A stretch of DNA of 59,490 nt, the filler included, from Dugesia japonica (Eukaryota): assembly GCA_001938525.1 (NCBI GenBank). It is 4 parts of 4 records of this genome, joined end to end, with 100 filler letters (N's around TTAATTAATTAA, not from the genome) between each part and the next. Parts side by side here need not be neighbours in the genome. Positions count along the whole stretch, not along the records: positions 20,271 to 34,170 come from MQRL01626900.1; 3 more parts are not named here. One strand, given 5' to 3'. Positions 8,481 to 38,361 of the stretch are shown piece after piece (positions within the stretch are counted from its first letter, which is position 1; the number at the start of each line of letters is the position of its first letter). The position numbers and the translations under genes were made by a program. Below the pieces are notes generated by a model. It was not told the DNA's origin and searched no databases. It saw nothing but the letters and a program-made list of their open reading frames with translations.

Positions 8481-8499
8481 TATATTTTTAACTACTGAA

Positions 8500-10899: not shown

Positions 10900-11420
10900 G
10901 TTGACTTTACCATTTGAGATGCTGATATAATATAATACAAAGTACATTTTCAATGCATATCTCAATGCCCGATAAAATCTTTCAACATATACTGCTCTGT
11001 ATTATAAAAATACTGAATAATGGTTAATTTTGAAAAGTAAAACGATATTTTAACTTAAAAGCATTTAACTTTAAAAATATTTTGATGACAGCTTCCATTT
11101 TATTAACATATTTTGATTTTATCGGTACAGCTCTTATAAATCTATTAAATACATCAACACGTGATAAAATATACTTGTATCCCTTATTAATTTTCGAATA
11201 AATTACATTTTCATCAAATTTATTTGTCATAAATCATCAATACTAAAGGTTTTATACAGTCTTGCTTGAAATCCTTTCAACATTGACTTAGTCAGACTGA
11301 ACACTAACTGGTTTAATGACCCAATTTTAAACTCGCTTTTCAAATTTTGTATTGCTTTCCATAGTTTTCTACTCTTTTAAAACCAGCTTAATTTTTTGTG
11401 TCTGTCCATATTGTTTTGAT
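10900..11420 (-). mobile_element. Polinton integrase fragment (degenerate)
   Basis: INKGYKYILSRVDVFNRFIRAVPIKSK, plus an upstream WV..QLVFSL..RLYKTFSIDD segment. Confidence 0.85.
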
Positions 11421-11491
11421 TTTGTACATTACAACAATTTGATATAAACTTGAGATAAATTCCTGAGAATGAATCCAAGTTATCCATTGTT

Positions 11492-11807
11492 TATGTAAAA
11501 TTTAATAGTTCTAATGCTGCTAATGCAATTGGAAATAATGCAGCAAGGAATCCACTCTTTTGTGTATACATTATTTTTCTTATTAATTTCCTATTTTGTG
11601 TATTTACAAGTTAAAGCAATGACCTTTCATTACGTTGTAATGATAATTTTTTCTTTTTGCTGATATTACCACAAAAAATATTCAAAAAATTCTCTAGCAA
11701 AATCATCTATAATAAACCTTGGAAATGAATCTAACGATTTCTATGTTGACCTTTTTGAAACCCTTAGCAATACATTAAAATACGGAAGACTTTGTTTAAA
11801 TGTCATA
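11492..11807 (-). pseudogene. Polinton basic core-like protein with Q-x-(G/S)-G-F-L motif and amphipathic tail
   Basis: MTFKQSLPYFNVLL...RKIMYTQKSGFLAALFPIALAALELLNFT*, directly upstream of the integrase. Contains stops and a frameshift. Confidence 0.6.
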
Positions 11808-12937
11808 ATATTTTTTTAAATACAAACATGTAGATTGTTTATATCTTGATCCATTTTCAATTAACATTTGAAAGTTACTTGNNNNNNNNNNNNNNNNNNN
11901 NNNNNNNNNNNNNNNNNNNNNNNNNNNNNNNNNNNNNNNNNNNNNNNNNNNNNNNNNNNNNNNNNTTTTTTTGTTTCCTGTTCTTTATAGCCAGCTTTTT
12001 ATCTTACATTTTTGAATTACTTCTGTTTTACAAACTGTGATTATTTACTTGATCAACTATATTCGTTTGATTAAAGCATCCGATGTATCTATTGAAAGAA
12101 TGAAGAAAGTTATTTTAATGCCTTATAGTCAACCCTATAATTCACTTTGAGTATAATCAATACAACCAAAACCTTGTTAATTATCCACATATTTTTACCT
12201 TAATATATAAGTTTCCTTTGAAAAAAGACATCTTCATGTGCTTTATCAACCCATTAATCATTAACTTATAATATAAATGTATTCTTTCATTCATTAAAAT
12301 TCTAACCAATTACTCATGAACCTAAGGTTTACTTTTGAAATTAATTAATTAATTTCAAAGGTAAATATTAGGTTCATGATTAAAAGAAATTTTATTCAAT
12401 CAATTAAAATATAGAATCAACATATACAAAACTTTAAATAAAACTTATAAATTCAATACACTAAGTAATTATAATAAACGAATAAAGATTAAAATAACTT
12501 AATTGAAAATAAAAATTATCTTTATTTGAATTTAATTTTAGAACTATCCTTATTTATTTTAGTATTTACTGAATGTAAAACCATAAATTGCAAAGATTTT
12601 TCTTCTTTATAATTAAATTTTAATTTTAAAAGCTTAAATTTTCACTTCTTTTTTAAAAACGTTTGTTTTGAGAACTTTTTATTTTCACATCATTTATGTT
12701 ATCTACGCACTCGTATTTTAAATAATACAATTTTAATATTTACAAATGAAAACTGGTTATATACAATTAATTTATTTTAAATAATTGAAATATAATTAAT
12801 AATTATTTTAATAATAATTCAAAAGAAAAAAGAATAATAAACAAGAGGCAAAAATAATTAGTAAAAAGGATAAAAATTCAATCAACAATAATCTAAAAAA
12901 TTGAAATTATCATAGCCTCTAACAAAGGCCATGTTTT

Positions 12938-14934: not shown

Positions 14935-17480
14935 ATGTACAGCAAATTGCGTGGTTGAAAAGAATTGAAACGTTCTCAGCCACAATTAACTTCGACTTCA
15001 ACTTTTGATTTGTTTATTAGATAGCGACGCTAAAGATTTATGGCTAGCTTGCAAATCACTAACCAAAATGGACGACAAATCAACAAGAGATTGGTTCAAA
15101 TTAAAGTTCGACAAAGATAAATCCCTTTTACGAATGATTGAAGATTTCAGTATAATCAGTCAAAAGACTGATGAAAGATATGAAAATTTTGAATTACGAG
15201 TTACAAGAGTTCTGAAGAATATATTCGAATCCAGATTATCAATGGAAAGAATTGTGAAGAAAGTAATTCAGCAAAGAGTAAAATCTTAAGATTTATAAAA
15301 AGCCTTTGCCCTAAAACCAGATTTGAATGTTGATNATATGCGACAATTAGCTGAAAATTATGAAAAAAACGATGAGATTGAATAAAAATCATAAGTCAAT
15401 AAATTATCATATTCTAATGTGGCAGCAGCTAATTACCGCTCAATATCGAATAGGATTAACGGTAAAATATGCGAATTCTGAATAGGTCAATAGCATCAAG
15501 GCCAGCTCCTGTTGTTAATTATCCAGAACAAAAATTCTCAAAAAGAGGCAATAGATGTAATTTTTTGATGAATTGGATGAAGTAGAGCATGATTTGAACT
15601 ATTTAAACGAGAATTACTTCATTGTTTAAATTTCGTCTGTGGAGTCAAGACAGTAAGAACAAATCAAAATCGAAATTTAAACGTAGAAGACGAAATGTAT
15701 GTGAAGAGCAATGGAAGAATTTGGAGTGTGGTTAAAGTGAATGGTAGAGGTGTAGAAATTTTATGGGACACAGGATCATTGATTTCAGTAATGGATATGA
15801 ATGCTCGGAAAAGATGTGGTTCGTTTGCATTGGAAAACTCTGAGATAAAATTGAGTGGAGCATGTTCAAAGAAAGCCATTAAATGTTAAGGCCTCTGAAA
15901 AGTGAAAATTTATTACCATAATATGAANNNNNNNNNNNNNNNNNTGGTAGTACAGAATATAAGCCCAAAGTTCATTGGTGGAATAGACGTTTTCAAACTT
16001 TTTAATATTCAATGAAAGATAATTGGATTAATCGAGTTAGATAATGTAATGTGTAATGTTTCTGATGAGGATCGTTTAAGAGTCACTATGGGCGTTTTCA
16101 AACCAAGAGATGACACCTTGCAAAAATTCTTAACTCGTTTTGCCTCGATTTTTATAACGCATACGTTTGACCTGGGGAAACACACCTAGTTAAACATCCT
16201 ATTCAAACAACGAGGAATCCTGTCGTACAACAGCCAATATGACAACCGATGCATCTAGAAGGCAAAATTGATAAGATGATTGAAACACTTAACAAAAGTT
16301 GCATCATAAAAGAATGTAGTACGCTGTGGAACTCACCTATGGTGATTGTTAACAAAAAAGAATGGAGTTATTCGTATGTGTCAAGATTTCAGATTATTAA
16401 ATGAAACAACTGATAAATTTTTGTTTCCTATACCAGATCCTCAAATGTTATTCGATTATCTTTGTGAGTGTACAATATTTATAACACTAAATATAAGCCA
16501 AGCGTATTATCAAGTCGAACTAGAAGAGAAGATTAAAATTAAAACCACTTTTTTTACAAAGAAAGGTCAGTACAGCTATAATCGCATGCCATTAGGCCTA
16601 TCAACCGCTCCGGTTACGTTTCAAAAATTAGTGCATATAATTTTGTCAGGTATTCTATTTAAATGCGTTGTAGTTTATATCGATGATATTCTAATCTTTG
16701 CAAAAAATTAGAAAAAACATTATAGCATTCTATCAGAAATTTTTCAAAGAATTCAAGCATCTGGTTTTAAAGTAAATCCCGCCAAATGTAAACTCTATCA
16801 AGAGGAGCTTGTGTTTTTGGGTCATACAAAAAACAAATTTGGAAAAAATCACGGAGATTTTTAATGCTGGAATTCCGAAATGTACTAAACAATTGCGATC
16901 TTTTCTTGGAATGGCCAACTATTACAGGAATTTTATAAAAATACTTTCGCAACTTGCTTCACCTTTATATGCTGCTGCCGAAGGTCAAAAGCAGGAGACA
17001 ATGTGAACAAAAGAATTCAAGACGAGTTTCAGGAAAATCAAGGAAGCTCTCTGTAACTCTCTAGTATTGAGGTGTCCTAATTCAGAAGGTCAATTTATTC
17101 TGGAATTTTTTCAAGAATTGCTTCTGTACTGAGCCAATCACAAAACGGTATGGAAGTTGTTATAGCATATGGATCAAGCTTGTTAAACGTACCTGAAAAG
17201 GATAGGAGCTATCGACTCTTTATGAATTTATTCAACATTTTCGGCATTATCTTTATGGGAAAAGCTTTTTCGCAAGAACAAATCACAAAGCTTTAGAGTT
17301 TATAAAGAATTCGAAAAAACCGATTCCGCCACAGTTTCAAACTTGGATGAACGAGTTATTAGAATATGATTTCCTATTAAAGTATAGAAAAGGGGAACAT
17401 CATTACAATGCTGATGGTACGTCAAAACTGACGTCTTATATGCCAGTCTGAACATAAAAATGCCAAGTCTAAATTGTCTA
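14935..17480 (+). mobile_element. Ty3/Gypsy LTR retrotransposon internal region (gag-protease-RT-RNase H), degenerate and truncated
   Basis: Protease ILWDTGS; RT RMCQDFR, RMPLGLSTAP, YIDDILIF; LRSFLGMANYYRNFI; RNase H VIAYGS...HFRHYLYG...TNHKAL...HYNADG. Confidence 0.95.
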
Positions 17481-18680: not shown

Positions 18681-21609
18681 TAAGACCAATAAATTAAATA
18701 TATTTAATACATTACATTAAAATTTATTAATATTTTCAACACTTAGATCAACACATAGATAAGCAAGCAAGTATTCAATTATTTCTGATCCAAACTAGGT
18801 TTTAGTTGATATATATTATCATTATATTGGTTCTGTGCGTCACATCATAAATTTGGAGAACAAAGCCTTTTAGTACAAAATCATTTAGGTAATTTATAGG
18901 TAGCGTAATGAAATAATTATTTTTTTATATTTTTTGCTAATAGAAAGTGAGTTAATTTGGTAATAAATTACAAATCAATTCTTTTCAATTATAATTGTTT
19001 CGAAATAGCAGAGTTGTAGTAAAATAAATGATGTCTCAACAAATTAGTTTTTATTTGGAAAATGAATTATCAATTGAAGATATAACTAACAGGTAGTATT
19101 TAACTTCCTACCGAATGATACTAAAATCGACTCTATACGATCAAGTATATAAGCTATGGGAATTGTCAATCTTACATTCTTAACAACATATTACCNNNNN
19201 NNNNNNNNNNNNNNNNNNNNNNNNNNNNNNNNNNNNNNNNNNNTTATGCATTTAACGTCACTATGACAATACATACACAATAAAGTATCACCTGGGAAAG
19301 TTAAAACTAAATATTGAACTCCTGCGCATGTTTTTATATATAAAAATGTCAGCACCAGATCAAACCATTATATTTTTAAAACTAGTCCAAAGTTCAGCCC
19401 AGTATATTTGACCCCAGGTAAGTTTCAGCCCAGTTTATTTTAGCCTAATTTTTCGGCGGGTGGATAGGTATGGGATCATGAGCTACTATCTATCTACTCA
19501 AATGCTTCATCCGTTAGTACACGTACAAGTTGGTTTAAGCTCACACCAGCATTGTTCATTATTATATTTAGTGCCTTTTTAATATAGATATCACGGATTG
19601 ATTATTTAAGTGTTACTAAATGAAACACGTTTTGTTTAATAGTTACTTCTTCAGAAACATTGACGTTTAGCTTGAACTATGTTCCCAGATATTATCAAAC
19701 TGGCTTCTGCCAGACTTCAGTTTCTTTTCAAAAAAATGATATTTGTTGATTATTAATAGTAGTTTTTCAAGATTCAGGCTTATTTATCTGTAATTATGAA
19801 TTCTGTTGATGTAAGGTTTTCTTAATCGTTAAATAATAAATGACTGAGACAACTAATTTTATTTATTGAAATACACAAGTTGTACCAACCGTATTAGATA
19901 AATAAGCTATTCAGTACTATCCAACATGATAGGTTTATAATACATTCACGTTTATAATACTCCAGTTTACCAAACAACACTAATTTTTACGAGATATTCA
20001 CATTAATTTTCTACAATACACATTCAAAGATAATCGTAATATGATGATTGATTTTCTAATCAATTAATATAATGGTTAAACTGATTCAGGTCAGCTAAAA
20101 TTATGTAACAATCCAACTTATCCAATTGAAAAAATGTGAAACACCAGTTTCCGAGTTATTTGGCTGTAATNNNNNNNNNNNNNNNNNNNNNNNNNNNNNN
20201 NNNNNNNNNNNNNNTTAATTAATTAANNNNNNNNNNNNNNNNNNNNNNNNNNNNNNNNNNNNNNNNNNNNCTTTTTTGATCTACGCCTAAGTTTATTTTC
20301 GTAATTTTGAAAATATTTAATTTTTTTAATAATAATAATAATAAATAATAATAATGTTGGGGTGAATTACCCCGGTTGAGAAGAAATTCAAGGCCAGAAG
20401 CCAAATCAAAAAATAATAAGGAGGTGGTCAGAAGGAAAATCAATTAAGAATAATTATATGGCTAAAATATAATGACTTCAATTAATAAAAGTCAAATGGA
20501 AAAGAAAATGGGAATGAATATCTCAGATAAAAAGAATCCAACTCATCAATTCCAATAATTAAAGGAAATTATTAAAATATAAATAAAGATAAGAAAATAG
20601 TCAGAAAATAATAATTAATTAATGAAGGAAAAATTAATTAAGTTATTGTAAAAAAGAATTAAAATTAGGCAAAAAATCAGTTTTGGTCGAATAGATCCGC
20701 CCAGAAAAATCATGGAGACTTGGAATAAGAAATTCTGAAAAGGAAATGCTAAAGGGCAATAGGATTGCATAACAAGAAAATTCCATCAATATCAGGAGGA
20801 CCCCTACAAAGATTTGAAGTATGGGCCAATAAGAAGCCAAAAAAGAAAAATAAAACAAAGACCAGAAAATCACATGTTGACTTGAAAATAGACACCAATA
20901 GAAGTTCTAAAAATCTTGGAAAAAATCTGAAAATTGGCACCATAAGAAGCAAGAATTTCAAATTAAAAATAGAACACCAATGAAGGTACTGTCAGGGCGT
21001 AATCAGAAATGGTATAAAAACCCCGCTGTATTTTAGTCGAAAAAACAAATTTTTGCTAATATTTGAGCGTACAAAACTCAACCTCATTTTTCTCAATGTT
21101 ATTAAGTGATTTGTATTACGGCTATCTAGAAGGAAATTAGGTGAGAAAGTTAACAATAAATCATCACTCAACTATTCGAAAGATCACAAATTTTTTGTAA
21201 GATATCTAATTGTGCTTACTTTGGAATCATAGGAAAGAAGTATTTTAATGAGAGAAAGGAAAAGGAAATCAAACAGGAAAATTTTTCAATCAATATTCAA
21301 CGTAATTATCACAGTTAACCGTTGCAGAATCCTGAAAGTCATTTAGAAGTAATTTATTGATTTATTTATGTCATGATATTAAAGTTACATAATAAACGAT
21401 GGAATTTTTTCTCATTCAATTATTATTTAGTTTGTTAAATATGAATAAATGAAAAGTAAAACCGTGAGTATAATCCATTTTATTTAAGAAAACTCAAAAT
21501 AAAATACATCATTTAATGTTATTATATATTATGAACAGTTATTAATAAATGAAATGTAAAACCGTGAGTATAATCAATTTTATTTAAGAAAAATCACTCA
21601 CTAATTTTC

Positions 21610-22880
21610 TATTCTATGATATAATGGAGCATGTAACGAGACTAAATTCTAAATCAAACATTCCCATCATTGGAAAAGTCGGAAGCTTCATTTTTCGTTG
21701 AAGATCGATAAATAAGATAATGTCCAAAGTTCTGGCGAGTTGACGTATCTATTTTCTGTTTACTCAGTTAACCACACGATGATAGTTCGATAATTCTACA
21801 TAGCCAAATTACGCATCAATAAAAAATCTACAACTGTTTTCTTTTGCACTGACAAATTCTACAATTAATCAACATTATCTGTTTTCAACTGCGACATTTG
21901 AATGAAATATCGACAATTTTCATAACTGTCACACACACGTCGTCGACCTGGATTTACTTTCATTAATATTAATATCTGAGTAGGATTTATAACGAGTATA
22001 GGATAGTAGTGTGTATGGCGAAAACTGACACCATTGCAATTGACTCATTTACATTCTTGTGAAAATTTCTGTAGTTATTTAATCACCAGTTGTCTGCAGG
22101 ATTATCATGATATCGATTATTAATAGACTCGTTACTCTGATTAAAAAGTAAGCATAGGAATATCCTGATGATTCGTTCGGTTACTAGTGTCAATCACCGC
22201 ATTATTATTCTGAGTACTATTACTGATATTACTACCTTTTTATTATTATCATTAACATACACATTGTCATTACAACTTCTATTATTACTATTATTTTATG
22301 GTTATTAAAAATATTTTTACGCTAATTTGTTTTATTATTTATGATTACTATTAAAAATTTTATCGTTGTTAGTACTATTGTGGCTACGATTCATATGTCG
22401 GTTATTGTGATTAAATTATCATCATCCCAATAATTATCATCAGCGAAATTATAATCATTGCTGTTATCTTCATATTTGCCACCAATAACAGTGGTGACAT
22501 TATTAAGTAGCTATATCATTCAGGTGGTTACGACGAGCCCAATCACTAACATCATTATTAAATTACTCCTTGCCGAAGATATTATTAATATTATCATTAT
22601 TAAGTTCCGATTAAAATTATAATGGATAGATATACCCACCATCATTATTACTATTACGATTATTTACGTTATTCTTCTTCTTATTATTAATTGTTATCAA
22701 TTACTATCATAATTACCATTATTATTATTACTATTAGAAATTATTTCATTTACTATCATGATTATCAATATTATTATTACTATTATTATTACTATTATTA
22801 TGAGTATTATTATGAGTATTAGTACAGTTATCATGATTGATTTAAGTATTATTATTAAATTTGATAGTATAATTATGAAC
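21610..22880 (-). pseudogene. Decayed Asn-rich ORF divergently oriented to array ORF A (copy 1)
   Basis: Long degenerate (ATT/GTT/ACT/ATC)n tract reads AAT/AAC/AGT/GAT on the minus strand. A similar tract precedes ORF A copy 2. Confidence 0.4.
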
Positions 22881-23142
22881 CAGGAATGCGCCTGTTAGGA
22901 TACTTATGATCATCGTCACTATTCCTGTACGCTTTTAATTGTTATTAACGGACTTCCTGCTGTCAACAATTCTGCTAGGCCAGGTAATAGATCTAGAGTC
23001 AGGGTAATATCTTGCCATGAGTAATGATCGCACCTAAGAAGTTTTGAGACATCAATTTTTCTTAAAACTATACTTAGCCCTAATCGATAGGCCCATAATT
23101 AGGTCGAGAAAAACTTAGGTTTAACTTTACATTATTTAGGAT

Positions 23143-23328
23143 ATGCCTGCTGAGCTAAAAAATTCACTACTCTTGATTTGGAAGCAGCGTAAATCGGCTC
23201 GGCTCAAACAGCTCATTGGTCACCGCTTGTTTCCCCAGCTGGTGGAGCATCCTGACGAGACAGACTTACAATGTTTCGTCGAGATGTTCTCATTGGGTTT
23301 TAACGTAGACATGGAGGAGGAAAATTAA
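23143..23328 (+). CDS. Array ORF A copy 1 (61 aa, unknown)
   Basis: tttag|GAT ATG start, AATAAA near 23374. Protein homologous to 25220 and 28353 (LLL...RLKQLIGHRLFP...HPDETDL.CF.EMF). Confidence 0.7.
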   Translation: MPAELKNSLLLIWKQRKSARLKQLIGHRLFPQLVEHPDETDLQCFVEMFSLGFNVDMEEEN

Positions 23329-23929
23329 TACTGACGTTAATGCATGCTCCAATTATGTACTGTCAGTTTCATTAAATAAAATGTATTCTAGTTAAATTTT
23401 TAGTTATCGATAAGTGTCCCGTTGCATTTATATCATATTATAAATTTAAATTGATCATAATGAACTGTATTTTATAGTGGAATGGTAGTCCACGTGTTTG
23501 AATGAGGAACTCAATCATAAAAAGGAATTGTTTAATACACAGCCACTGCAAAATTGTTCTCAGAATTATAAAAGTGAAGACTCATATTTTAAGTTAATCA
23601 AAAAAGGAAACGGCCAAAAGAAGAAATCTACACAAACTTATTTGCCCAAAACGGAAAAAGAAAATACATCAGTGTGTTTACCCGTTGCAGAAATCTGAAG
23701 ATTGATATAAAAGTAAATCTTTAGAATTTATATCATGATAAAAAAGTTTTAATTAAAAAATCAATTTTCGGTTATATTTATATCATGTTAATAATTTTAT
23801 GTCTATGCAATAATAAATGTTTATTAAATTAAATCAACTCATGTTTACTTCATATTATACACGTTTTTAAAATGTATACGGAAATATATAAAGTTTTAAG
23901 TAGCTTTCATTTAAAAAACAAATCACTCA

Positions 23930-25150
23930 TTTCAGTCAGAATTAGTATATTTCCGTGTCATTATTTTTATGCAATTGTAAGCGAGATCTAGGAAAATAAC
24001 TCCAGTGTTTGAGTAATATTCATAGATTCATTTGAGAATTGTTGGATTGATAAACATAAGAAATTTCCGATTTTCAGAAAAATGAAGCATTAATTCTTGT
24101 TATCAATAAGTCTACAGCAGGATAGTGTTTGTGTTCTTCAATGTTGTTGCATGCACGATAGTAGAAAAATCCACATGAAAGCTGACTGACGGAGAGTTAA
24201 TTCTGACTCATTTAACAACTGCCTTATAAGTGAGTGTTCATTGTAGTAGAAATTTGTCAGTTCTACCTTTTAATAATCGTGATATATGAGTCAGTCACCT
24301 TGTGCTTAGCATTTCTGATATCATCATTCCTGGTGGATAATAAAAGCGTTAACAGTGTTAAAGTTCATTGGTATTATTACTAATGCCTTGCTATTTCCAA
24401 TTATCAGTAATTAACTTTCGCAATATTCCAATTGTTATATAGTTTCTTGATGTTAACATGATTGCAACTGTTATTGATCCTAATAAGATTACTGATATTG
24501 TTAATAGCGTTAGGATCATTAATTTTAGCAGAATTATTAGTATTATTATTAGCATAAGNNNNNNNNNNNNNNNNNNNNNNNNNNNNNNNNNNNNNNNNNN
24601 NNNNNNNNNNNNNNNNNNNNNNNNNNNNNNNNNNNNNNNNNNNNNNNNNNNNNNNNNNNNNNNNNNNNNNNNNNNNNNNNNNNNNNNNNNNNNNNNNNNN
24701 NNNNNNNNNNNNNNNNNNNNNNACTGTTAGGGAATGTATTGTTATTTAAGTTAGTATCGTTGGAAAATGATTGTTCCTATTGTTGTGAATGTCGTTTATA
24801 TTACTATTATAAACACGGTGTTCACGATAAGTATAATGAATGATTGTCAGTATTCTAAATATGAACCTGGTTCTTAAGGTTTTTACACCATTACTACTTA
24901 AATTATTCTGTAACTTTATCATTAGGATTATCGTTATCGTTGTTGCTAAGGTTGTTACTAGTGTTACCTTGATTTTCCCTATGAAACATTATTGCCTTTA
25001 GTATTAAGGTTTTACTAAGTTAAACGAGCTTTCAAAACATCCTGTCTAATTATAATAATACACATTATGATATGATAATATAATCAGCGTTACCTAATTA
25101 TTATTAACAGTATTGAACGCCGGGTTTAGTTTTCTTTTCTTTAACAATCA
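23930..25150 (-). pseudogene. Decayed Asn-rich ORF (copy 2)
   Basis: Same low-complexity character and same position relative to ORF A copy 2. Interrupted by an N gap. Confidence 0.35.
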
Positions 25151-25219
25151 TAACGATATTTAATACGGTAGATTATGCCACATAAATCTTATGTTTAAAT
25201 AATCCCGGTATTTTAGGTC

Positions 25220-25410
25220 ATGCCGGTAGAATTCAAACATACACTGCTTTTGATTTTAAAACAACTTAAGACAGCACGCCTGAAACAGCTTATCGGACAT
25301 CGGTTATTCCCCAACCTAATAGAGCATCCCGATGAAACTGACTAAAGTTGTTTTTTTGAGATGTTCCCGTTGAACCGTAACGTAGATGTTGACAAGGAAC
25401 GAAACAAAAC
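25220..25410 (+). pseudogene. Array ORF A copy 2
   Basis: ttttag|GTC ATG; MPVEFKHTLLLILKQLKTARLKQLIGHRLFPNLIEHPDETD*SCFFEMFPLN. Many synonymous differences from copy 1. Confidence 0.75.
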
Positions 25411-25551
25411 TCGTAACTGCGTCTTAATTTGTTTTGTTAAATGTGGTTATTTTACTAAAATAAAATCTTNGACCTAATTTTCTGCTTCATAGTTTTTCTT
25501 TTTGCACATATATTGTTTATTTATATGTAATTTGTTTATGTGTAATTTCAG

Positions 25552-25880
25552 TGGAATTTAAATGGGAGCTGTTATTAGATCGTCGAACGGGTCGAATGAT
25601 ATTCAACCAGTATAAAAATCCATTTAACCGAGATGCTCGAGTTTTTGCGGACCGGTCCAACCTTTTGACCGAAGATGCAGATGAGGAACAACGATAGTAC
25701 GCCACTGAGCGTGACGCCTACTACGATTGGACAGGCCCCAATCATGCTCGCGAGGTGTATCACACCATTACAACTTCCTCTCCCGATAGTGATAGTGAAC
25801 TTCACACAAATATTGAGTGGAGGGAGGCCCCTCCGCTGTCCCGATATCTACACCGCACTTGCCCCCTTTTTCTGGGTTGA
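25552..25880 (+). pseudogene. Array ORF B copy 1
   Basis: tttcag|TG; EFKWELLLDRRTGRMIFNQYKNPFNRDARVFADRSN..., homologous to 28721-28988. One internal stop; AATAAA near 25953. Confidence 0.7.
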
Positions 25881-26102
25881 GCGAGTTCATTGATAACATG
25901 TTATGGGGACTCAGACTCCGAGAATCAATTAGATGTTTCTTGTTCGGTTAATAATAAAGATTTCATTGCAGCTTTGTCTTACTGCTTTCGTGGATTCATT
26001 AATGTTGTTTTTGTCTTTAATAATAGTTGAAATAACTTAGAGCCTGTTTAAGTACCATTTGATAGGTGAGAGTTCGTAGTTATTGATATAATTTTCTTGT
26101 AG

Positions 26103-26461
26103 TACATTCATCAATTAACCGATCAGTCGCTCCTACAAAGAAAGTTGGAGAAAGTAGCGAAGACATCGATATGACTTGGGATGTTTACCGTCTTGCTAAA
26201 CGCCACTGGGAGGCCGACACAGCTGCTGCTGAGAGCAAGGTAAAGCGGTATAAGAATAAGTGCATCATGTTTCGCAAGGAAGCCGAAGCTTAACATGCGT
26301 AGGAACGCANTTNGAAACAGCAATTAGAGTCNTATCCTGAAATCATCNNGNCCCTCTATGACCGTGAAAATAAACTGGTGGCAAATGTAGTGGAGTTGCG
26401 GAAACGTATGCCGCTTGAACCCTTGATGATAGACAAGTCAACACAGACCCCACCACCATAA
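26103..26461 (+). pseudogene. Array ORF C copy 1: coiled-coil protein with C-terminal DKSTQT
   Basis: ttgtag|TA; DMTWDVYRLAKRHWE...LYDRENKLVANVVELRKRMPLEPLMIDKSTQTPPP*. Two internal stops. Confidence 0.7.
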
Positions 26462-26597
26462 CAAGCTGTGATTAAATTTTATGTATAAAAATAAATTTTC
26501 TTGATTGTAATCTTATGACAGGTGTTCATTTCGTCCTCTTAATTTGTAATAATTTTTAAACTGAATTAATCATTCAAGTTAACTTATTTAATTGTAG

Positions 26598-26956
26598 TGC
26601 CTAGAATTATTTTACCAACAAGCCTTCGCCGTTGTAACAGGCTCATACAGAAATCTTTACTCAATCGCCACATCAAACTTCAAAACGAACGAGCGCTTCT
26701 ACGTTACCTCACACAGAAAAACCGCCTAATAAAAAAATTAGATGTTATCGTTAAAAAACAGAGCTGGCGGAACACATCAAGCAGGTTCTTCTCCATAAGA
26801 TAGAATTCTTACAACAATATATCGTGGATATTGCAAACCGCCTTGATCAAGAAAACGTGGACCCGTTAGAACAGCGACGATGACGTTGCTGCCTTTAAAT
26901 TCATGGATACCGTGCCTACCCAGTGGTTAGATCCTGGGATGCTGGAATTTATGTAA
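26598..26956 (+). pseudogene. Array ORF D copy 1
   Basis: ttgtag|TG CCT AGA; PRIILPTSLRRC...ERALLRYLTQKNRLIKKL...NSDDDVAAFKFMDTVPTQWLDPGMLEFM*, with frameshifts. Homologous to 29766-30125. Confidence 0.7.
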
Positions 26957-27014
26957 TTAGCGAAAAATATATCTTAATTTCAAGTTTTTTCAAGTCGTTT
27001 AATAAATAAAATAA

Positions 27015-27277
27015 TGGAAAAAGGTTTGAAAGAAAAGGTATACGAAAGAAAAGGTATACTTCAAGTATATGTTGGAAGTCAAGCGCTTTGTACCAATAGC
27101 CTAGTTAGGGACATTAGGTAAATTCTTGAACGGGTCCCTTGAGGGCTGTTTTTTCCCCAGCCCAATTTTTCTTGTATAAACTCAGGTGGGACCCCAAAAA
27201 TAATAATAATGTTGGGGTCTACCTGCGTTTGTTGTAGAAAGATATGACTGCGGAAAAAAGTAGCCCTCAGGGGATCC
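27015..27277. mobile_element. Two head-to-head element termini (CCCCAAAA | (AAT)n | TGTTGGGG)
   Basis: 27210-27277 is an imperfect inverted copy of ~27130-27199; both resemble ~30295-30364. Confidence 0.6.
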
Positions 27278-27790
27278 ATCCAAGAGGCGTTAAACAATGT
27301 TGTCCTGTGTCTATGACTATCTTTAGCCTTGCAATCGATTTTTTGATTCAAGATACAGCAAATAAATTTCCATTCATCAATACAGATTTTAATACAGCCA
27401 TCCTTGCCTACGCTGATGTCCAACAATCAATTGAAAAGTGTCTCTATGTTAAACAATATTGTTAGTCTCTCTGAGATCTATCAACTCCGGTTAAGACCCA
27501 GCAAATGTGGTTTCTTCACCAATAACAATCTGTTCACTTCGAGTGACGTTTAAATCTATGGCGAACATTTCCCAATCATCGATGAAGATAACCTTTACAA
27601 TTACCTCGGTGTGCCTTTTGGCGAAAAAAAGAAATGCAGCCTTGAAAAACTTATCTCTAAAGACATTGAGGACTACACCAAAATTTCTGAATCTGACCTT
27701 CATCCAGCTCATAAAATACAAGCGTATAACGTCAAAATTTACGAAATTCATAGTATATCCAATAAGGAGTATAGTTAAAAATCTGGTTCG
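27278..27790 (+). mobile_element. RLE-type (R2/NeSL-like) non-LTR retrotransposon RT fragment
   Basis: RGVKQCCPVSMTIFSLAID, LAYAD and YNYLGVPFG motifs. Confidence 0.85.
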
Positions 27791-28352
27791 GTGATCGATA
27801 AACATTTGATTGCCACCAAGTAGAATAAAGAAATTCCTTTAATCCTCGTTGCAGATTCTGAAACATTTTCAATAAGTATGAGTTTTGTTTCCGTTTCAAT
27901 TATATGTTAATCATGTAAGATAATCATTAAAAGTTACTTATTCTGTATTTATTAATCTGTGATTATGATTTTGTAGTCGATGATTAAACAGTGATACCCG
28001 ATTCGCACAGCCCAAATTGCACCTCGCACCTAACAATCCCGTAACTATCCTACTATAATTGGACGCAAACTTAAAATCAAAAAAAGTATTGAGTTTATAA
28101 AGATGGAATGCGTGTTAAAATATTCTATTACTCACACCGCTATTCAGGGATAGAGATTCAAATAACACCCTGGCTTCCAGAATTTGCAGATAAAGTAACT
28201 TGATTACTATGACTATGCAATTAATCTATATCATTGTTAGTCATATTTGCTACCATGATCGCTCTCAGCCGAAATCTGGGCTTATGTCTAATTTTCAAGG
28301 TCATACAATCTACATATTCAATTATGCCATCTTACGTTATTTTTTCTAGATC

Positions 28353-28523
28353 ATGTCCGAAGTTCTCCACACTACTTTACTACTAATCCGCCAAGAAAGG
28401 AAAATATCTCAACAGCGGCAAATGATCGCCCATCGATTGTTACCAAATAGGATCGAACCCCCAGGCGAGAAGGACCTCGCCTGCTTTGTAGAGTTGTTCC
28501 CAATAAATTCAAGTCGTGGCTAA
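28353..28523 (+). CDS. Array ORF A copy 3 (56 aa, below the ORF-track cutoff)
   Basis: ttctag|ATC ATG; MSEVLHTTLLLIRQERKISQQRQMIAHRLLPNRIEPPGEKDLACFVELFPINSSRG*. Confidence 0.7.
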   Translation: MSEVLHTTLLLIRQERKISQQRQMIAHRLLPNRIEPPGEKDLACFVELFPINSSRG

Positions 28524-28720
28524 TGTAATCTTTATTAAATGCTGGACTGTCGTCAATAAACATAACGTAATTTGTCGTTGACATGGTTCATTCCGAATGA
28601 TTTTTAATTCATTTTATAGTAAATAAAATATTCTACTCGTTACAAACTGTTGACTTCCTTTTATCTTCAATTGATTTTACTTAAATACATGTATACCTAT
28701 GTTATCCTTTTTATTTTTAG

Positions 28721-28988
28721 TGACCGAATTTGATGGATGTTGAAAGTAGATAAGGCCACCAGCCAAACAGTATTTCAACGTGTACTTAATCCATATAACC
28801 GGGACTCAGGGATACTAGTAGATCGATCAAACATGCCCCACGAAGTGGCAGCCGACCGCCGACAACTCGACTCAGCGGAGCGCTGGTGTTATCAACATTG
28901 GTCGAAAGACACGCAAACCTTTGGCGAATCCACCTTCCCTCTGTCCTCTCCGGAACTCGACATGGACAACTATTATGGGCACTACTAA
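28721..28988 (+). CDS. Array ORF B copy 2
   Basis: tttttag|TG ACC GAA TTT, then a 1-nt slip into WMLKVDKATSQTVFQRVLNPYNRDSGILVDRSN. AATAAA near 29011. Confidence 0.7.
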
Positions 28989-29258
28989 CCCATTTTCTCT
29001 TTTTGTGAGAAATAAAGATAATTGTTAATCGACTTCCAGCTCATGTTGTTTTATTCATTCTTACCAATTTGATTATAATCAAGGTTTAATTACTAATGGG
29101 TATTAACACTTTTGGATTAATAATTCTGTCCTTTACTTAAATAACTTCCTGATCAATATTTAAGTTTATTCCCCACAGGTTTAACACTAAACGAACCTCA
29201 CACTTTTTGACTAGTTAGAAGGTTGCTGGTAATATTGAATTAAATTAATTTCGTCTAG

Positions 29259-29616
29259 TGAATTCATCCCGTTATCGGTCTGTCGCTCTCATTAAGAAAA
29301 TAAGAGAGAGAGGTTAGGACCTCGAGATGGCCTGGGATCTGTACCGGTTATCGAAAGGAAAATGGGAGACCGAAGTTGCTAATAAAGTGCCATAGCTAAG
29401 CGGGCTCGGACTCGTTGTAAGGAGCACAAGCTTGAGATGAAAGTCTCCCACCATTAGAACCGCCTCTGGAAAGACCAGTTAACAACTCACACTGAAGTAA
29501 TCTAGTCCTTGCATCAACGTGAGACATAACTAGTGATTAATATTATAAAGCTGCGGGAACAACTACCATCCAAGCCGTTATCAAAAGACAAATCAACGCA
29601 AACTCCCCGCTCGTAG
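29259..29616 (+). pseudogene. Array ORF C copy 2 with DKSTQT
   Basis: gtctag|TG AAT; DLEMAWDLYRLSKGKWE...SLHQRET*LVINIIKLREQLPSKPLSKDKSTQTPRS*. Confidence 0.7.
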
Positions 29617-29765
29617 AATTATTAATGGAAAAACTCATGTAATGTAAAATAGATATTTGGAATGATCGTTATCAATTTTTCTTTGATGTTCATACCCCTG
29701 TTGAAAATTATGTCTTTACTAGAATTCTGTTGCCTTTATTTATCTGATAATTGTTTTTATTCTAG

Positions 29766-30125
29766 TGCCCAGAGTCGGTTTACCCAATTCTCTATGTCGA
29801 TGCTACAAGTTATTGACGAAATTCATCATAGAAAGACACTTTTCGAAAAAAAGTGAGCGGACTTTGCTCAGGCGACTGTCGCAGAAAAATTGTCTAATTA
29901 AAAAGCTCGAGGTCTCTAGTAAGAAACAGCTGGGATCGCGAGTTGCACCAACAATCAGCTTTTTAAAAAATTACTTTTCTAAAACAATACATCGCCGACT
30001 TGTCTGTGCGTCTCGAATTGGAAAAGTGGACTTTATGAAACAGTGACGATGACGAGGCCACGTTTGACTTTGCACACGTTGAGCCCGCTCAGTGGTTAAA
30101 CCTTGAAGAGATACATTTTATGTAA
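29766..30125 (+). pseudogene. Array ORF D copy 2
   Basis: ttctag|TG CCC AGA; PRVGLPNSLCRC...ERTLLRRLSQKNCLIKKL...NSDDDEATFDFAHVEPAQWLNLEEIHFM*. Confidence 0.7.
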
Positions 30126-30529
30126 AAATAAGTGTTTCATACAAATCACACATTTTTGTTTCAATAGTTATAGGTAAAAGGGAAAATGTAGAACCCGAAA
30201 CAGCAGGATGGGAGCGTGTACTTAAAGTACGCGTTGGTAGTCAACAACTCCATTCATAAAAGCCTGGCCATAGATGCTAGGTTAAATTTTTCGCGGGGTT
30301 CACGGAGTGCTGATTTTCCCCAACACCATAGTTTTCTATTCCTCACTAAGATGGATCCCAAACAATAATAATATTAATAAAAATAATAATAAAATGCAAC
30401 TATACTAGTAGTTATTTCTTCATTTTCTACTTGTTCCGTAGATACTACCAGGCTCTTTATCCTATGTAGTGTGTAGTGTCAATATGGTACATAAATGTTT
30501 TTACTAGTTCACACTCACTCATCTTCATT

Positions 30530-31001
30530 ATTAGTGAGTGCGACATTTTTGTTCTTAAAGCTTTACAACTGGTGGTTTTTCGAACAAATTGTTTTATTGA
30601 GACCGGCTTATTACTTTCATAACAGTCAAGGTATGACTGATGTTTTAATTATTATTCTTTATTGTTATGCCTTTTGCCTTCATCGTTGTTATATCACTCA
30701 AAAGGCTTTAACACTTCGGCATCAAGAAAATCCATTCTTTGAAGTAAACCCCTTTACTTTCGTCCTTAAATTTCTCAATGACTGAATTGAGACTCTTACT
30801 GTAAAAGTGGTGGCTTGTGTTGTAATTTGATATGTCCAATAACTGGTCCTTCACCATCAAACCGGTTATCTTTTCCAAACTTATGCCTACAACTTCAAGG
30901 AAAAGGCTATCAGTTTCTCCGGCTACTATATTTATTTTACGACGGTATTTTTCCAACTTCAATATACTGTAGTTTGTACATTCGTAAATTTGAGAGGTCA
31001 A
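30530..31001 (-). mobile_element. Polinton protein-primed DNA polymerase B C-terminal fragment
   Basis: AGETDSLF (DTDS motif), LDISNY...HHFYS...VIEKFKDE, EWIFLMPKC*S, KAKGI. Confidence 0.9.
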
Positions 31002-31036
31002 GTACTGTCTGTTTAATGTAGCTCAGACGATCTAAA

Positions 31037-32300
31037 TGTTGGGTTACTAGGCTTTTGATGTTCTTTTTGTTACTTCTGTCCTGGTCGAAATGTCGTTTTC
31101 TTGATTAAGATTTCTATCTGAGTGATGATACTTTGTAGCCACAAGAATTTGTGTGATGTCTTCTCTGGCGTCACGATTCCCCATTCCCGAATTCAGCGGG
31201 ACTATGCTGTGTCTTGTGTTTATTAATTTCGCCTTTATTGGCCCTATTCTTTTTGTGCTGTTGTATTTTGTTAACACGGAAAGCTTACAATAAAACTCTA
31301 ATTACTTTTAAACAATAACTTTATTTCGATATTTATAACATTATTCGTACAGATTAATGATTTCCTCGTGCTTTTATTTTTTTACGTCCTTGTTTGCTCT
31401 CCACGTCTTTGTCAGAGCCCGGACCGTTGCTATTAAATTTCTTTCACGATCGGCGTTTGCTTTTTTAATATCCACTCTAATCCGACAGGTCTGTATTAGG
31501 GCGAGATCGCGCTACTTTAATTTGACATTCTTCTCAAAACCATTGAACCGGCGCGAATCGTTTCTCGAAATAATAATATTTTTGATTGAAAATAATAATT
31601 TTAGATTTCTTGTTTCACACATATAATTAAGGATATAAACATGATTGATTATAAACAATTTAATATTAATATATTATTCTAATTTGGAATTCATTCCTCT
31701 TTCGCTACATATAATTATAATTTCTAAATTCCACTTCTTTCTTTAAATTTAATAATATTTATTCGATAATAATAAAAAATAATAATATTTATCACAAAAT
31801 AATAATAATGATACNTTTTAATGTTTTAATAAGCACAATCTTTGTCCAATATTTGTCCAATCTCCAATAATACAATCATCCTCTTCCTCCATAATCTGGT
31901 GGTCCTCTTCTTCTGTTATTTGGCTTTCTTTCTCCACGGTCTGTCAATCCACTTCTTTAATCTGATAATTTTCGTCATCAGATAAAATGATAACGTCTTC
32001 CTTCCTTTCCTTGGCTGGAAAACCGTTCATTTCATTTCCCCTAATCTCCTTAAATAAATTTCTATTCTTTCTTATAAATTGTGAAATATGCTGTGCATTC
32101 TGTGTGTGGAAATTAAAATATGTCCATACACTTATTCTTTTACAGTTAGAACAGATGTAGTATCTTATCCCATAATACCATTGACCATAATATTTCTCCA
32201 TAATATCTTGCCAATGGTCATTATGAACTGGACTTCAGCAGTATTTTGTACAAAATTTACATCGGTCGAGAAAATATTAACAGATTCATTATAAATACTA
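31037..32300 (-). mobile_element. Second-family small-ORF element end (terminus TGTTGGG at 31037)
   Basis: 31037-31280 is homologous, in inverted orientation, to 38100-38361. Carries ORF H (31341-31622) and a CxxC zinc-finger/acidic ORF (~31830-32270). Confidence 0.65.
31341..31622 (-). pseudogene. Array ORF H copy (coiled-coil, SIM-like tail)
   Basis: MCETRNL...RDLALIQTCRIRVDIKKANADRERNLIATVRALTK...EEIINLYE*, homologous to 37727-38042. Two internal stops. Confidence 0.7.
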
Positions 32301-32879
32301 CATTAACATGATTAATTATTTTAGACTGTATAATTTGCAACAATGTTGCATATTGAAACTTATGTTAATTATATAACATTTCTATAATTTTTATTAATAT
32401 AACAAAATAAATAACTTAAATATATCAATTGAAATTATATGCATGTCTTAAAATTAACTTGCAAGTTTTAAATGCAAAATAAAGCAAATCAACATAAATT
32501 CAAAATCACATCATTATTATTATTTAAAAATCAATCAAATCATATAAAAAGTCTATAATTTATTATTATTGAGATTAATAAAACTTTTAAAATAAATCTA
32601 ACTTCAAAAATAAAATATCAATTTTTAGTGACAATTGAAATAGATTATTTGCTTTGAGAGAAATCGTATAAAATAGTTCAGAATCGCTTTCTGTTAAATA
32701 TTTACTTAATTCTTCTAATTCTGTTATGTATAATTCATTTTTCAACTGTATAGTATGATAACTTACTTTAGAATACTCTATTTTAAATTTTACATATTTT
32801 ATTGGATAATCTTCTTTAAATATTGTATAAATATTACTATAATACTTAAGATCCATTTTGTTAGTCTTATGTGGGAATC

Positions 32880-33350
32880 TAAATCTATTTTCGATTTTTA
32901 CATTTTCAAATATAATAAAATATGGTTATTCACAACTAATAGTTAAATAACCCATATGAGATATATAAACGTTTTCATTTTCACTGACAGTCAAGGATTG
33001 NNNNNNNNNNNNNNNNNNNNNNNNNNNNNNNNNNNNNNNNNNNNNNNNNNNNNNNNNNNNNNNNNNNNNNNNNNNNNNNNNNNNNNNNNNNNNNNNNNNN
33101 NNNNNNNNNNNNNNNNNNNNNNNNNNNNNNNNNNNNNNNGATTTTGAAGCTCAACAATGAATTTACTAGCATTATTATTCGGATGAATAAGAGGACAGCT
33201 ATTACTCGGTAAATGTGTATAGAAATCATTCGATTTCATTATAAACTAAGTTTGATGCTAATATCTAAGTAGGTTTTTCATATCCAACCCACTTAACATA
33301 ATATTGTTTATTCTTTTTTGTCCTTTNGACTTTATAATTTTTTCAATTCG
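32880..33350 (-). mobile_element. Polinton integrase chromodomain end plus minor capsid (penton) start
   Basis: VKWVGYEKPT*I, followed by MKSNDFYTHLPSNSCPLIHPNNNASKFIVELQN. Confidence 0.85.
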
Positions 33351-33359
33351 AAATATCCT

Positions 33360-33532
33360 CGGTGGAGGAATCACATGTAATTCTTGCTCATAGAACTTTC
33401 ACTGCGGCTATCTGAGCTTCTCAATAATTTTGGCGAGTCTGTACAGCTCCCAAGACATCCCTTGGTCATCGCTGTATTCTCTTCGACACTTACAGGTGTA
33501 TAAAGGGGTTGATTGTGCTCTATTGTTACTCA
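33360..33532 (-). pseudogene. Array ORF C copy 3 (5' fragment)
   Basis: cttctag|TG AGT...EYSDDQGMSWELYRLAK aligns with DIDMTWDVYRLAK and DLEMAWDLYRLSK. Confidence 0.65.
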
Positions 33533-33779
33533 CTAGAAGATAAAGAATCACTTATTTTTTATTTATCAATAGCATTTTGAGGATTATTTAATAAAGAGAG
33601 TTTACAATAAAATAATATGCCCATTTTTTGTATTTTAGTTAGCAAGAAAGTCACTATAGAAGTATGTGTGTCTTAGTTAAAAAGAAAAGTATTTAATCCC
33701 AATTTTACAGTAAAAAACACAGAATGAACGATCCACAGACATTTCCTATAAAATACATTTCCTTTATAATATATTTCCT

Positions 33780-34170
33780 ATATAGTAAATTTTTAACTTT
33801 TTCTGAGCGTATACTTTGTTCCTCATCTTTGTTTGTTGTTTTGTATATTTTAACGTTTCTTTTCCTTTTTGGATCCTCATGTTTGTTTAAACACTGCTCG
33901 CAATCTGGTAATCGTGAAAGTGCATCAGCATTAATATGTTCACGACCTTTTTTAAATTTTACAATCATATCAAAGATTTCCAGTTCAGCTTTCCATATGT
34001 AGTATTGTGACGTATTTTTGCTATTTCAAATAAGCATCCATTTTAATGCTTGATGATCTGTTCTTACTACAAATTATTATCCCATTAAATAGTGCTTAAA
34101 CTTGAGAACAAACACATATATTGCCAGAAACTATTTTTTTGTGATGCAGTACTGTTTCTGACTTTTTGTT
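33780..34170 (-). mobile_element. Gypsy RNase H fragment
   Basis: QYCITKK*FLAI...FKHYLMG..FVVRTDHQALKW...KKGREHINADALSRLP. Confidence 0.9.
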
Positions 34171-34297
34171 NNNNNNNNNNNNNNNNNNNNNNNNNNNNNN
34201 NNNNNNNNNNNNNNTTAATTAATTAANNNNNNNNNNNNNNNNNNNNNNNNNNNNNNNNNNNNNNNNNNNNATCTTTATTTTTATTTTAATAATTATT

Positions 34298-36563: not shown

Positions 36564-38361
36564 ATGCCAAAAGGGTGTTCATTCCAGTCAACCATCATAA
36601 ACAATATGCCTGATCTATGGAACTCCATCGGCAAGTATGAAACGCACCATGATCCATGGTGGATCACTCAGGATCGCCTCCGACAGAAGGATCAGGAGCT
36701 GTTAACTCTGATAGAGAAATTGAATCAACAGAAGGAGACACTACGACAGAAGATCGCAATACTGGAGGAATTGCAGAAAGGAGTGGAACAACAAGAGCAG
36801 CACTACAACGATCAGCCAGTGGAGATCATTAGCAGGAATGAACGACGGGAAAAAGAAATGATATCTTTGNNNNNNNNNNNNNNNNNNNNNNNNNNNNNNN
36901 NNNNNNNNNNNNNNNNNNNNNNNNNNNNNNNNNNNNNNNNNNNNNNNNNNNNNNNNNNNNNNNNNNNNNNNNNNNNNNNNNNNNNNNNNNNNNNNNNNNN
37001 NNNNNNNNNNNNNNNNNNNNNNNNNNNNNNNNNNNNNNNNGAAACTTTAGTGTGATTAATGTATGATCATTGTGTTAACAGCAATACAGTTTTAACTCTA
37101 GTATTTTCATGTCTTGATTATATTACATAATAATGTGTTAAAATGAATCAACGGATAAGGAGGAGTTAAAATAGAAATTCGTTTTAAATGTTTGTGAATC
37201 CTGATTTAAAATGATAGTGATAGATAATATGCTGAATGATTTTTATNNNNNNNNNNNNNNNNNNNNNNNNNNNNNNNNNNNNNNNNNNNNNNNNNNTACT
37301 ATATACAGAACTGCATCAACATCAACAGCGAGTAATCCAAAGTTCGCGTACTACTCAGCTTAAAGCAGAAAAATTCAACAAGATGTCGGATCGGTTAAAC
37401 ATAAAAGTCGAAGCTATGTTACGACAGATTCTAATACCGCTCGATGGAACTATTGAAAANNNNNNNNNNNNNNNNNNNNNNNNNNNNNNNNNNNNNNNNN
37501 NNNNNNNNNNNNNNNNNNNNNNNNNNNNNNNNNNNNNNNNNNNNNNNNNNNNNNNNNNNNNNNNNNNNNNNNNNNNNNNNNNNNNNNNNNNNNNNAGAAA
37601 TTCGTTTTAAATGTTTGTGAATCCTGATTTAAAATGATAGTGATAGATAATATGCTGAATGATTTTTATATTTTATAAAATAATTGTATAATTAAAGTTA
37701 TGAATATTATGTCAAATTATTTCCAGTGACGGATACAAAGAAATTAACGAACACTTCGATCGCGGATATTCGAAAAAGTGGGCATCGTTACAAAAGAAAC
37801 TGCAGTAGTAAATCGTAGAGCTACAACGAAAGAATGCTACGTTATGTGAAAAGAACACCAGATTACAGGAGCAAGATCTGGCATTAGGTCAATCATGTCG
37901 GGCAATGGTGGACATTATTAAATCGTATGCGGATCGGGAAAGCGTCATGACTGCCACGGTGCGTACGCTCACACAAGCATCAAAATTAACGCCTGAAGTG
38001 GAAAAAGAAAAGCCAAAGGATATCATTGAGCTGGACGAGTAATCTTGATTGAAATAAAAGTTTTGTACAGCATGTATTTTGAATTTTTTTTGTTAATATT
38101 GATTAATGAAGTCTAATTTCCAAAACGAGAGACGGATAGAAATTGAAATCTAAGACGGGATACAGCATAGTCCTGCTGAATCCGGGAAAAGGGTGATCGC
38201 GTTACTAGAGAGAGTAACACAAATTTCTGTGGTTGCTAGGTATCATCTCCCAGACAGAAAAGAGATTTAGAAGAAAGAAACAAATATGATAAAGTGATTA
38301 TAAATAAAGATCAAGAGAAACACAAGATTAAAACAACATCAAAAAGCCTAGCAACCCAACA
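36564..38361 (+). mobile_element. Second-family small-ORF element: three helical/coiled-coil ORFs then a terminus ending CCCAACA
   Basis: ORFs at 36564-~36870, ~37297-37459 and 37727-38042 (ttccag|TG, ends KDIIELDE*, AATAAA near 38053). Terminal ~260 bp homologous to 31037-31280. Confidence 0.65.

Follow-up and report, generated by a model that had tools for sequence, protein, structure and literature searches.

A pseudogenised, twice-present gene with an LC8-type DKSTQTP motif beside Maverick remnants in Dugesia japonica

Introduction

The capture of the dynein light chain LC8 (DYNLL1/2) by short TQT-anchored motifs is known from viruses and from host proteins. Here, such a motif, DKSTQTP, is described at the C-terminus of a small open reading frame (ORF), called ORF C, which is present twice in a stretch of the genome of Dugesia japonica (assembly GCA_001938525.1). 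This stretch, the window in the following, comprises 59,490 nucleotides joined from parts of four records. In a cassette of five small ORFs (A–E) near remnants of Maverick (Polinton) elements, ORF C comes third. We favor the view, with a probability of about 0.55, that ORF C represents a now-broken accessory gene carried by a mobile element, probably a Maverick, and that its protein likely bound LC8 via the C-terminal motif, with a predicted dimer clamp at the adjoining helix.

For LC8, a natural consensus D/S-K-X-T-Q-T-D/E has been reported, and affinities of 5.6 μM for Ac-DKSTQTD and 0.07 μM for VDKSTQTD were measured (PMC3078936). On the level of single positions, Asp at −4, Lys or Arg at −3, a non-bulky residue at −2 and Pro, Asp or Glu at +2 are preferred (PMC6607443). 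LC8 has been likened to a glue for binding partners that have a coiled coil close by (PMC3078936) and is generally accepted to be a dimerization hub, not a cargo adaptor (PMC6607443). DKSTQT is indeed the motif of the rabies virus phosphoprotein (P) (PMC11750543), as the first-pass annotation of the window had stated. Blocking the LC8 site of P lowers transcription and does not block access to the central nervous system (CNS) (PMC11750543).

The second system of relevance is the family of Mavericks, for which the definition of PMC6431247 is used. The related adintoviruses carry variable accessory ORFs with short host-binding motifs (the LXCXE "Oncoid" genes), typically upstream of the gene for the protein-primed DNA polymerase PolB (PMC8502044). 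In the main text of that study no LC8-motif protein, dynein or splicing appears, and its supplements may annotate such ORFs.

The DKSTQTP motif of ORF C

ORF C copy 1 spans positions 26103..26461 and copy 2 positions 29259..29616, both on the plus strand. They share one layout, being exon-like from a phase-1 acceptor to a terminal stop, with a Met at 26171 and 29327, respectively. In copy 1 the LC8-type motif DKSTQTP lies at 26432–26452 (+; DKSTQT at 26432–26449), corresponding to residues 110–116 of 118, and in copy 2 at 29587–29607 (+; DKSTQT at 29587–29604). The residue at −5 is Ile in copy 1 and Lys in copy 2. In each copy DKSTQT is followed by Pro, two further residues and then the aligned stop.

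The motif is encoded by GAC AAG TCA ACA CAG ACC CCA in copy 1 and by GAC AAA TCA ACG CAA ACT CCC in copy 2. Thus, five of the seven codons differ, every change being silent and in the third position, and no amino acid is changed. Over the whole of ORF C, 49 of 104 comparable codons are identical (47%), and outside the motif identity is 43%. This bears out the initial observation of an identical motif, written in different codons, in copies of otherwise modest identity. DKSTQTP is also the longest identical run in the seven aligned blocks of the cassettes, where other runs reach four to five residues. At the four-fold sites in six aligned blocks of the two cassettes, saturation has been reached, with differences at 31 of 44, which together with the coding type of the divergence indicates that the copies split long ago as working genes.

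Both copies agree with the published LC8 preferences at every position from −4 to +2, namely the TQT anchor and the favored residues at −4, −3, −2 and +2. Two matches of the back-translated pattern were obtained in none of 100 dinucleotide shuffles, and DKSTQT occurred in none of 60 windows simulated with an order-3 Markov model. The two hits are homologous and hence of a single origin, and count as one. Judged from the comparison of the two copies, DKSTQTP is conserved beyond the background (seven of seven residues with five silent changes against 43%). We regard it as a real, formerly selected, textbook LC8 motif.

State, selection and predicted shape of ORF C

Both copies of ORF C are pseudogenes, and a full-length protein is not made from either of them in the present form. 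Copy 1 is interrupted by internal stops at 26291 and 26300 and contains five codons with N, while copy 2 contains internal stops at 29315, 29455, 29503 and 29527 as well as a one-base frameshift near 29393. The stops are not explained by a ciliate code, since the frameshifts persist and one stop of ORF A aligns with Leu. Neither copy has an ATG at its 5′ boundary, and both start at a splice-acceptor-like AG.

The differences between the copies fall 45/25/61 on the three codon positions. The ratio of non-synonymous to synonymous differences per site (pN/pS) is 0.47, compared with 0.69–1.65 in the off-frame controls of ORF C and 0.65–2.36 over all off-frame controls. Upstream of the shared Met, 21 codons are comparable, and their differences (7/3/11) lie mostly in third positions, so that these codons were probably coding as well.

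A model of copy 1 alone, with X at the breaks, was obtained with AlphaFold2 (mean predicted local distance difference test, pLDDT, 74.9; predicted template modeling score 0.35). It displays helices at residues 18–61 and 85–101, of which the latter ends nine residues before the motif. The tail holding the motif has a pLDDT of 63–68 with a three-residue turn at 111–113. The proposal that ORF C is a coiled-coil protein is supported for residues 68–101 of copy 1, where a heptad pattern of a/d hydrophobicity is seen (shuffle p 0.003). For the same helix of copy 2 the pattern is borderline (p 0.063), and the first helix gives no significant signal (p 0.10).

RNA reads of the same species were placed on 26352–32990 at 80% likeness, using four runs of which 6–25% each was read; of ORF C copy 1, this stretch covers the 3′ third. 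Among the 982 reads placed, none had at least 99% identity and three had 95–99%. The bins of ORF C copy 2 reached a depth of 0.45–0.56 in one of the four runs and zero in the others. With both copies dead and no read at 99% or above, the wording that the element "encodes" an adaptor was too strong, and "full copies" has to be replaced by pseudogenes. On the neighboring PolB piece the depth was up to 31, and at 30570–31013 all four runs contained reads of sequences distantly related to the PolB remnant, which indicates transcription of some PolB relative in this species.

A model for the function of ORF C

Mechanistically, one LC8 dimer would take up a motif, as a β-strand, from each of two ORF C chains. 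This docking would stabilize the short adjoining coiled coil and thereby set the active or stable dimer of ORF C. The ORF might be reached by splicing from an upstream leader, likewise B, D and E, or it might be translated from the conserved internal Met. The cassette as such may correspond to the accessory region, variable in content, that is located directly beyond the PolB end in related Mavericks. The mechanism best supported is a predicted clamping of two ORF C chains by LC8, with microtubule transport as the weaker reading. The earlier suggestion of an LC8-recruiting adaptor therefore divides into two parts: the assignment as a putative LC8 client is well founded, given the exact consensus match, the favorable flanks, the adjoining helix and the silent-only divergence, and of the two functions proposed dimerization would fit, whereas the microtubule-linked transport is without support.

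Organization of the five-ORF cassette

The cassette is present twice in collinear order, at about 25220–27121 and at 28353–30259, plus a third, partial copy. All comparisons of position hold only within the piece 20271–34170, which carries both copies of ORF C. The window consists of several scaffold pieces joined by 100-base N spacers with a central 12-base all-frame stop linker (20171–20270, 34171–34270 and 43457–43556), so that neighborhood is valid only inside this piece.

All ORFs of the cassette lie on the plus strand. ORF A is found in three copies: copy 0 (23143..23328) is open over 61 codons and is 72% identical to copy 1 and 45% to copy 2; copy 1 (25220..25456) has its ATG 3 nt past an acceptor-like AG, one internal stop and an uncertain 3′ end; copy 2 spans 28353..28523. 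Past copy 0 a phase-1 exon-like ORF (23478..23698) with one early stop is located, which matches neither ORF B nor C and carries KKKSTQTY (KSTQT at 23624–23638) with flanks disfavored for LC8. With Tyr at +2, this KSTQT is predicted to bind more weakly. ORF B copy 1 (25552..25883) follows a phase-1 acceptor and has an uncertain 3′ end, and copy 2 (28721..28988) has a frameshift near its start and a KDTQT at 28905 that is absent from copy 1. ORF D copy 1 (26598..26956) follows a phase-1 acceptor, is frameshifted, has no ATG near its start and ends in an acidic-hydrophobic tail; its counterpart spans 29766..30125. The short ORF E (copy 1, 27014..27121) agrees in six of 11 residues of the aligned block with copy 2 (30174..30259), which again follows a phase-1 acceptor.

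For ORFs A and D, pN/pS values of 0.18–0.37 reveal the same purifying pattern, and in ORF B 20 of 56 codons are identical, with differences of 27/20/34 by codon position. These substitution patterns demonstrate that the cassette as a whole was under purifying selection in the past. Every ORF of the cassette begins behind a pyrimidine-rich AG, and phase 1 is the conserved frame in both copies of C and of D, in B (copies 0 and 1) and in E (copy 2); for B copy 2 the acceptor was read directly from the sequence. In addition, ORFs C and D terminate at aligned stops, and a phase-1 donor-like site closes ORF A in all three copies. Such a layout suggests one leader spliced to alternative last exons. 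This arrangement is known from the adenovirus E4-type early regions of small DNA viruses, where a shared leader is joined to alternative last exons.

Codons 41–47 of ORF A read DLxCFxE in all three copies, the Leu being a stop in copy 1; this resembles, without matching it, the Rb-binding LXCXE of the adintovirus Oncoid genes. Upstream of ORF A copy 2, an acceptor-led, decayed coding-like stretch is present at 27977–28200 (+), with no counterpart upstream of the other copies. A 15-residue match of ORF A to the viral contig L020 falls within a longer, unrelated ORF of 41% GC and was discarded as chance. For ORF D, none of 48 pattern matches was confirmed, and no Pfam family was found over the cassettes in six frames.

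Cassette 1 is closed by an imperfect inverted repeat (27124..27285) with arms of about 75 nt, 74–77% alike, around an AAT-rich loop; the hairpin is significant (z = −6.6, reached by none of 200 shuffles). Candidate roles of this hairpin are a terminus, a terminator or a small inserted element. A homologue of its left arm (30287..30368, +; 64% alike), without a right arm, closes cassette 2. Between the cassettes a reverse transcriptase (RT)-like remnant (27238..27890, +) is located, with an RVT_1 match (E 0.045) below the cut-off and no PDB sequence match of note. It is probably an unrelated insertion.

Maverick remnants in the window

A protein-primed PolB remnant (30458..31035, −) is arranged tail-to-tail with cassette 2, the distance from the PolB end being about 200 bases. 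Its ORF at 30711–31022 (−) is matched by 12 of 174 candidate proteins at 51–65% identity, and nine of the 12 are labeled PF03175. Further along, a remnant (31893..32261, −; E 5e-9) matches related Maverick PolB ORFs in their N-terminal part. At 33141..33398 (−) an integrase-chromodomain tail and the start of the next ORF match the Maverick locus L011; the integrase tail itself (33244–33398, −) lies 2.9 kb from cassette 2. A stretch near 33480 resembles the pattern MxWxxYRL; the ORF C profile did not recover it.

The 19 related metagenome loci used for comparison were obtained from 181 pattern matches via an alignment of six PolB sequences. L011 contains, besides PolB, rve plus chromo, an A32-like ATPase and a sequence weakly matching the adenoviral protease, which together make up the Maverick core. 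With the 106 ORFs of the related loci, core-gene remnants (integrase, ATPase and others) were found at several places of the window. Decayed core-gene remnants matching L003, L011 and L015 lie at 1138–1929 (−), 8371–9146 (−), 11069–11827 (−), 48534–48872 (+) and 49470–49661 (+). Judged from these remnants, the Maverick family was abundant in this genome. The ATPase remnant (48534–48701) and the remnant at 8371–9146 are on other scaffold pieces, none of them beside the cassettes; the latter, which has no Pfam match, we take to be capsid-like from the gene order. PolB queries against viral contigs gave no confirmed match (0/11, 0/2 and 0/48).

In the loci L010, L012 and L016 unrelated extra ORFs are present just past PolB, which differ between the loci. 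One of those in L016 is helical-looking, with QSTQTQP coming after it. Two further observations were made in these loci, a Maverick-linked split dual-specificity phosphatase (L010:2926–3514, −; Pfam DSPc, E 2.5e-21) and an ORF which by eye resembles a ubiquitin-conjugating enzyme (L011:13477–13881, +). In the window itself, 31113–31535 (−) and 37727–38361 (+) are diverged copies (34–36% identical) of one ORF without a Pfam family; behind each of them comes a short stretch that is also found ahead of the PolB remnant.

The remaining window is AT-rich, with a GC content of mostly 20–30% that rises to 35–39% over 25–31 kb, and long ORFs are scarce. Exons of a host glycoside hydrolase family 65 gene are located at 50114–50416 and 54215–54409 (−; Pfam E 5e-4 and 6e-7). 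Among the many transposon remnants, those of mariner, gypsy and hAT type lie at 5972–6400 (−), 15593–17448 (+), 33909–34170 (−), 52128–52683 (−) and 56605–56943 (+). By its sequence the window is eukaryotic and likely animal DNA.

Discussion

A number of results weigh against the assignment of ORF C to a Maverick-borne LC8 client. The conservation of the motif was deduced from two homologous copies only, the heptad support is clear for one helix of one copy only, and many TQT peptides fail to bind LC8 (PMC6607443). Homologues of ORF C were found neither in a word search (0 of 2 candidates passed E 0.1; lengths 65–209 only) nor among 1.84 billion representatives, and for ORF A none of seven candidates and no usable Atlas match was obtained. 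Homology of ORF C to the helical-looking ORF of L016 was rejected, since the likeness is driven by the motif: with the motif masked it disappears (shuffle p 0.11), and copy 2 does not show it (p 0.62). Regarding the splicing model, a leader exon was not found, the 982 reads on 26352–32990 include no spliced read in the cassette, and ORF A is a doubtful leader, since in two of its three copies stops come before the donor. Concerning the element, direct contact with a Maverick gene is seen for cassette 2 alone, the hairpin and the RT-like piece coming after cassette 1, and Maverick terminal repeats or a target-site duplication enclosing the cassette were not recognized in this decayed, gapped region. 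Furthermore, ORFs A–E have no match in the 19 related Maverick loci, nine of which extend more than 1 kb past PolB. These loci are relatives of 42–60% identity in PolB and accessory genes vary, so that the zero matches lower the probability of Maverick membership without excluding it. We consider it a little better than an even chance that the cassette is Maverick-borne; otherwise it would most likely belong to another, undescribed element. The "virus-like" character proposed at first is accordingly plausible by way of the adjoining Maverick remnants, with the membership of the cassette being deduced from position only.

In this alternative the motif and the LC8 clamp would be real, and the cassette would be a different element ending in the inverted-repeat arm followed by AAT repeats, to which the Mavericks are mere neighbors. 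We regard this as rather unlikely, yet as the strongest competitor. Within 5.3 kb, three diverged copies of ORF A follow one another in the same orientation, against a single PolB piece. Both cassettes close with the same arm of 75–80 nt, whose 64% likeness is above all of 300 shuffles despite saturated silent sites. None of the 19 Maverick loci holds a homologue of the cassette, and the gypsy, mariner and hAT remnants show that other elements are present in the window. However, the cassette has no transposase, integrase or intact RT linked to it, and the arms around copy 2 (27210–27285 and 30287–30368) are 61% alike compared with 77% within the hairpin, and therefore make poor terminal repeats. 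Cassette 2 also occupies the site where related Mavericks keep extra genes, which speaks for the Maverick assignment. A host origin, with the cassettes as dead copies of a lineage-specific gene family and the motif as that of an ordinary host client, appears improbable to us. The spliceosomal-type acceptors, the tandem copies on one strand and the missing database homologues would fit to fast-evolving genes, and LC8 has more than 100 host clients (PMC6607443). Nevertheless, every copy is broken and lies among mobile-element remnants, and cassette 2 drew almost no RNA reads from related copies at 80% likeness, where the PolB piece reached its depth of 31. Several compact ORFs with their own stop each would also be more like a viral early region.

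Two further explanations concern the motif itself. ORF C could be a true dynein adaptor that rides on microtubules via LC8, e.g., to bring particles or genomes to the nucleus. The same motif and helix would serve this equally, LC8 is a dynein subunit and dynein-binding peptides have been used for transport. We consider it as improbable as a host origin, given the accepted role of LC8 as a dimerization hub (PMC6607443), the rabies P protein that still entered the CNS with LC8 binding blocked while transcription was cut (PMC11750543), and the lack of a virion protein among the fold matches of ORF C to the viral models of BFVD (0 of 7 below E 0.001). Slightly less probable still is an incidental motif, i.e., a chance DKSTQT in the ancestor that survived inside a generally conserved protein. 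Here, it has to be considered that a seven-residue identical run arises somewhere in ORF C in 21% of 20,000 shuffles, which also weakens the favored interpretation, and that the finding was selected from a large number of windows and of conceivable motifs. In the 50,342 nt outside the cassettes, [KR]xTQT occurs three times, at 6955, 14220 and 14301, in stop-rich, repeated sequence, and these hits were treated as chance. An order-3 Markov null expects 0.9 per window, which is under this real background of three in 50 kb, and the empirical count was used. Because of the 21%, run length by itself proves little. The unlikely part is that the longest conserved run of the cassette falls on the published LC8 consensus, with the favored Pro at +2 and in an otherwise variable tail; at a site named beforehand such a run has a probability of about 0.003. 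Outside the cassettes, moreover, neither D[KR]xTQT[PDE] nor KSTQT occurs, whereas KSTQT is present three times inside.

If the assignment of ORF C as a Maverick-borne LC8 client is extended, one could imagine an animal Maverick lineage with a spliced, early-region-like unit past PolB, in which LC8-clamped coiled coils are recurrent, with the two ORF C copies, the KSTQT exon of copy 0 and QSTQTQP of L016 as independent uses. This is a speculative proposal which we presently hold to be doubtful.

LC8 capture by short TQT motifs is already known, hence the mechanism is not new. A transposon-borne LC8 client would be new, as none was found in the literature on Polintons, Mavericks or transposons and LC8, judged by titles and the starts of abstracts. 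Most accessory genes of Mavericks have no assigned function, and the motif of ORF C offers one of them a cheap and direct test. Three points limit the weight of the finding: both copies are dead, no relatives of the protein are recorded and the element is not pinned down.

Comparison with known systems

The closest described systems are the TQT-anchored clients of LC8 (PMC3078936; PMC6607443). ORF C shares with them the residues from −4 to +1, the favored Pro at +2 and, as predicted for copy 1, a tail of low model confidence and a nearby heptad-patterned helix. In contrast to these clients it is a broken gene without sequence homology to a known client beyond the motif. The site of rabies virus P, SSEDKSTQTTG (residues 140–150; PMC11750543), contains the same six residues and, as predicted for ORF C, brings a parasite-encoded protein together with host LC8. 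However, P is a polymerase cofactor of an RNA virus with an internal site, whereas ORF C would be a protein of about 120 residues from a DNA element with a terminal site, and no homology is claimed.

With the Mavericks, Polintons and adintoviruses (PMC8502044; PMC6431247) the locus shares nearby remnants of a protein-primed PolB and an integrase-chromodomain protein, with an ATPase remnant on another scaffold piece of the window. It differs from adintoviruses in that the cassette lies past the 3′ end of PolB, matches none of the 19 related loci and belongs to an element whose ends were not found. The locus has, finally, a similarity in layout to the early regions introduced above. Like adenovirus E4-type regions, the cassette has several small ORFs one after another, with an acceptor ahead of each and a stop of its own, a likeness in layout seen here without spliced reads.

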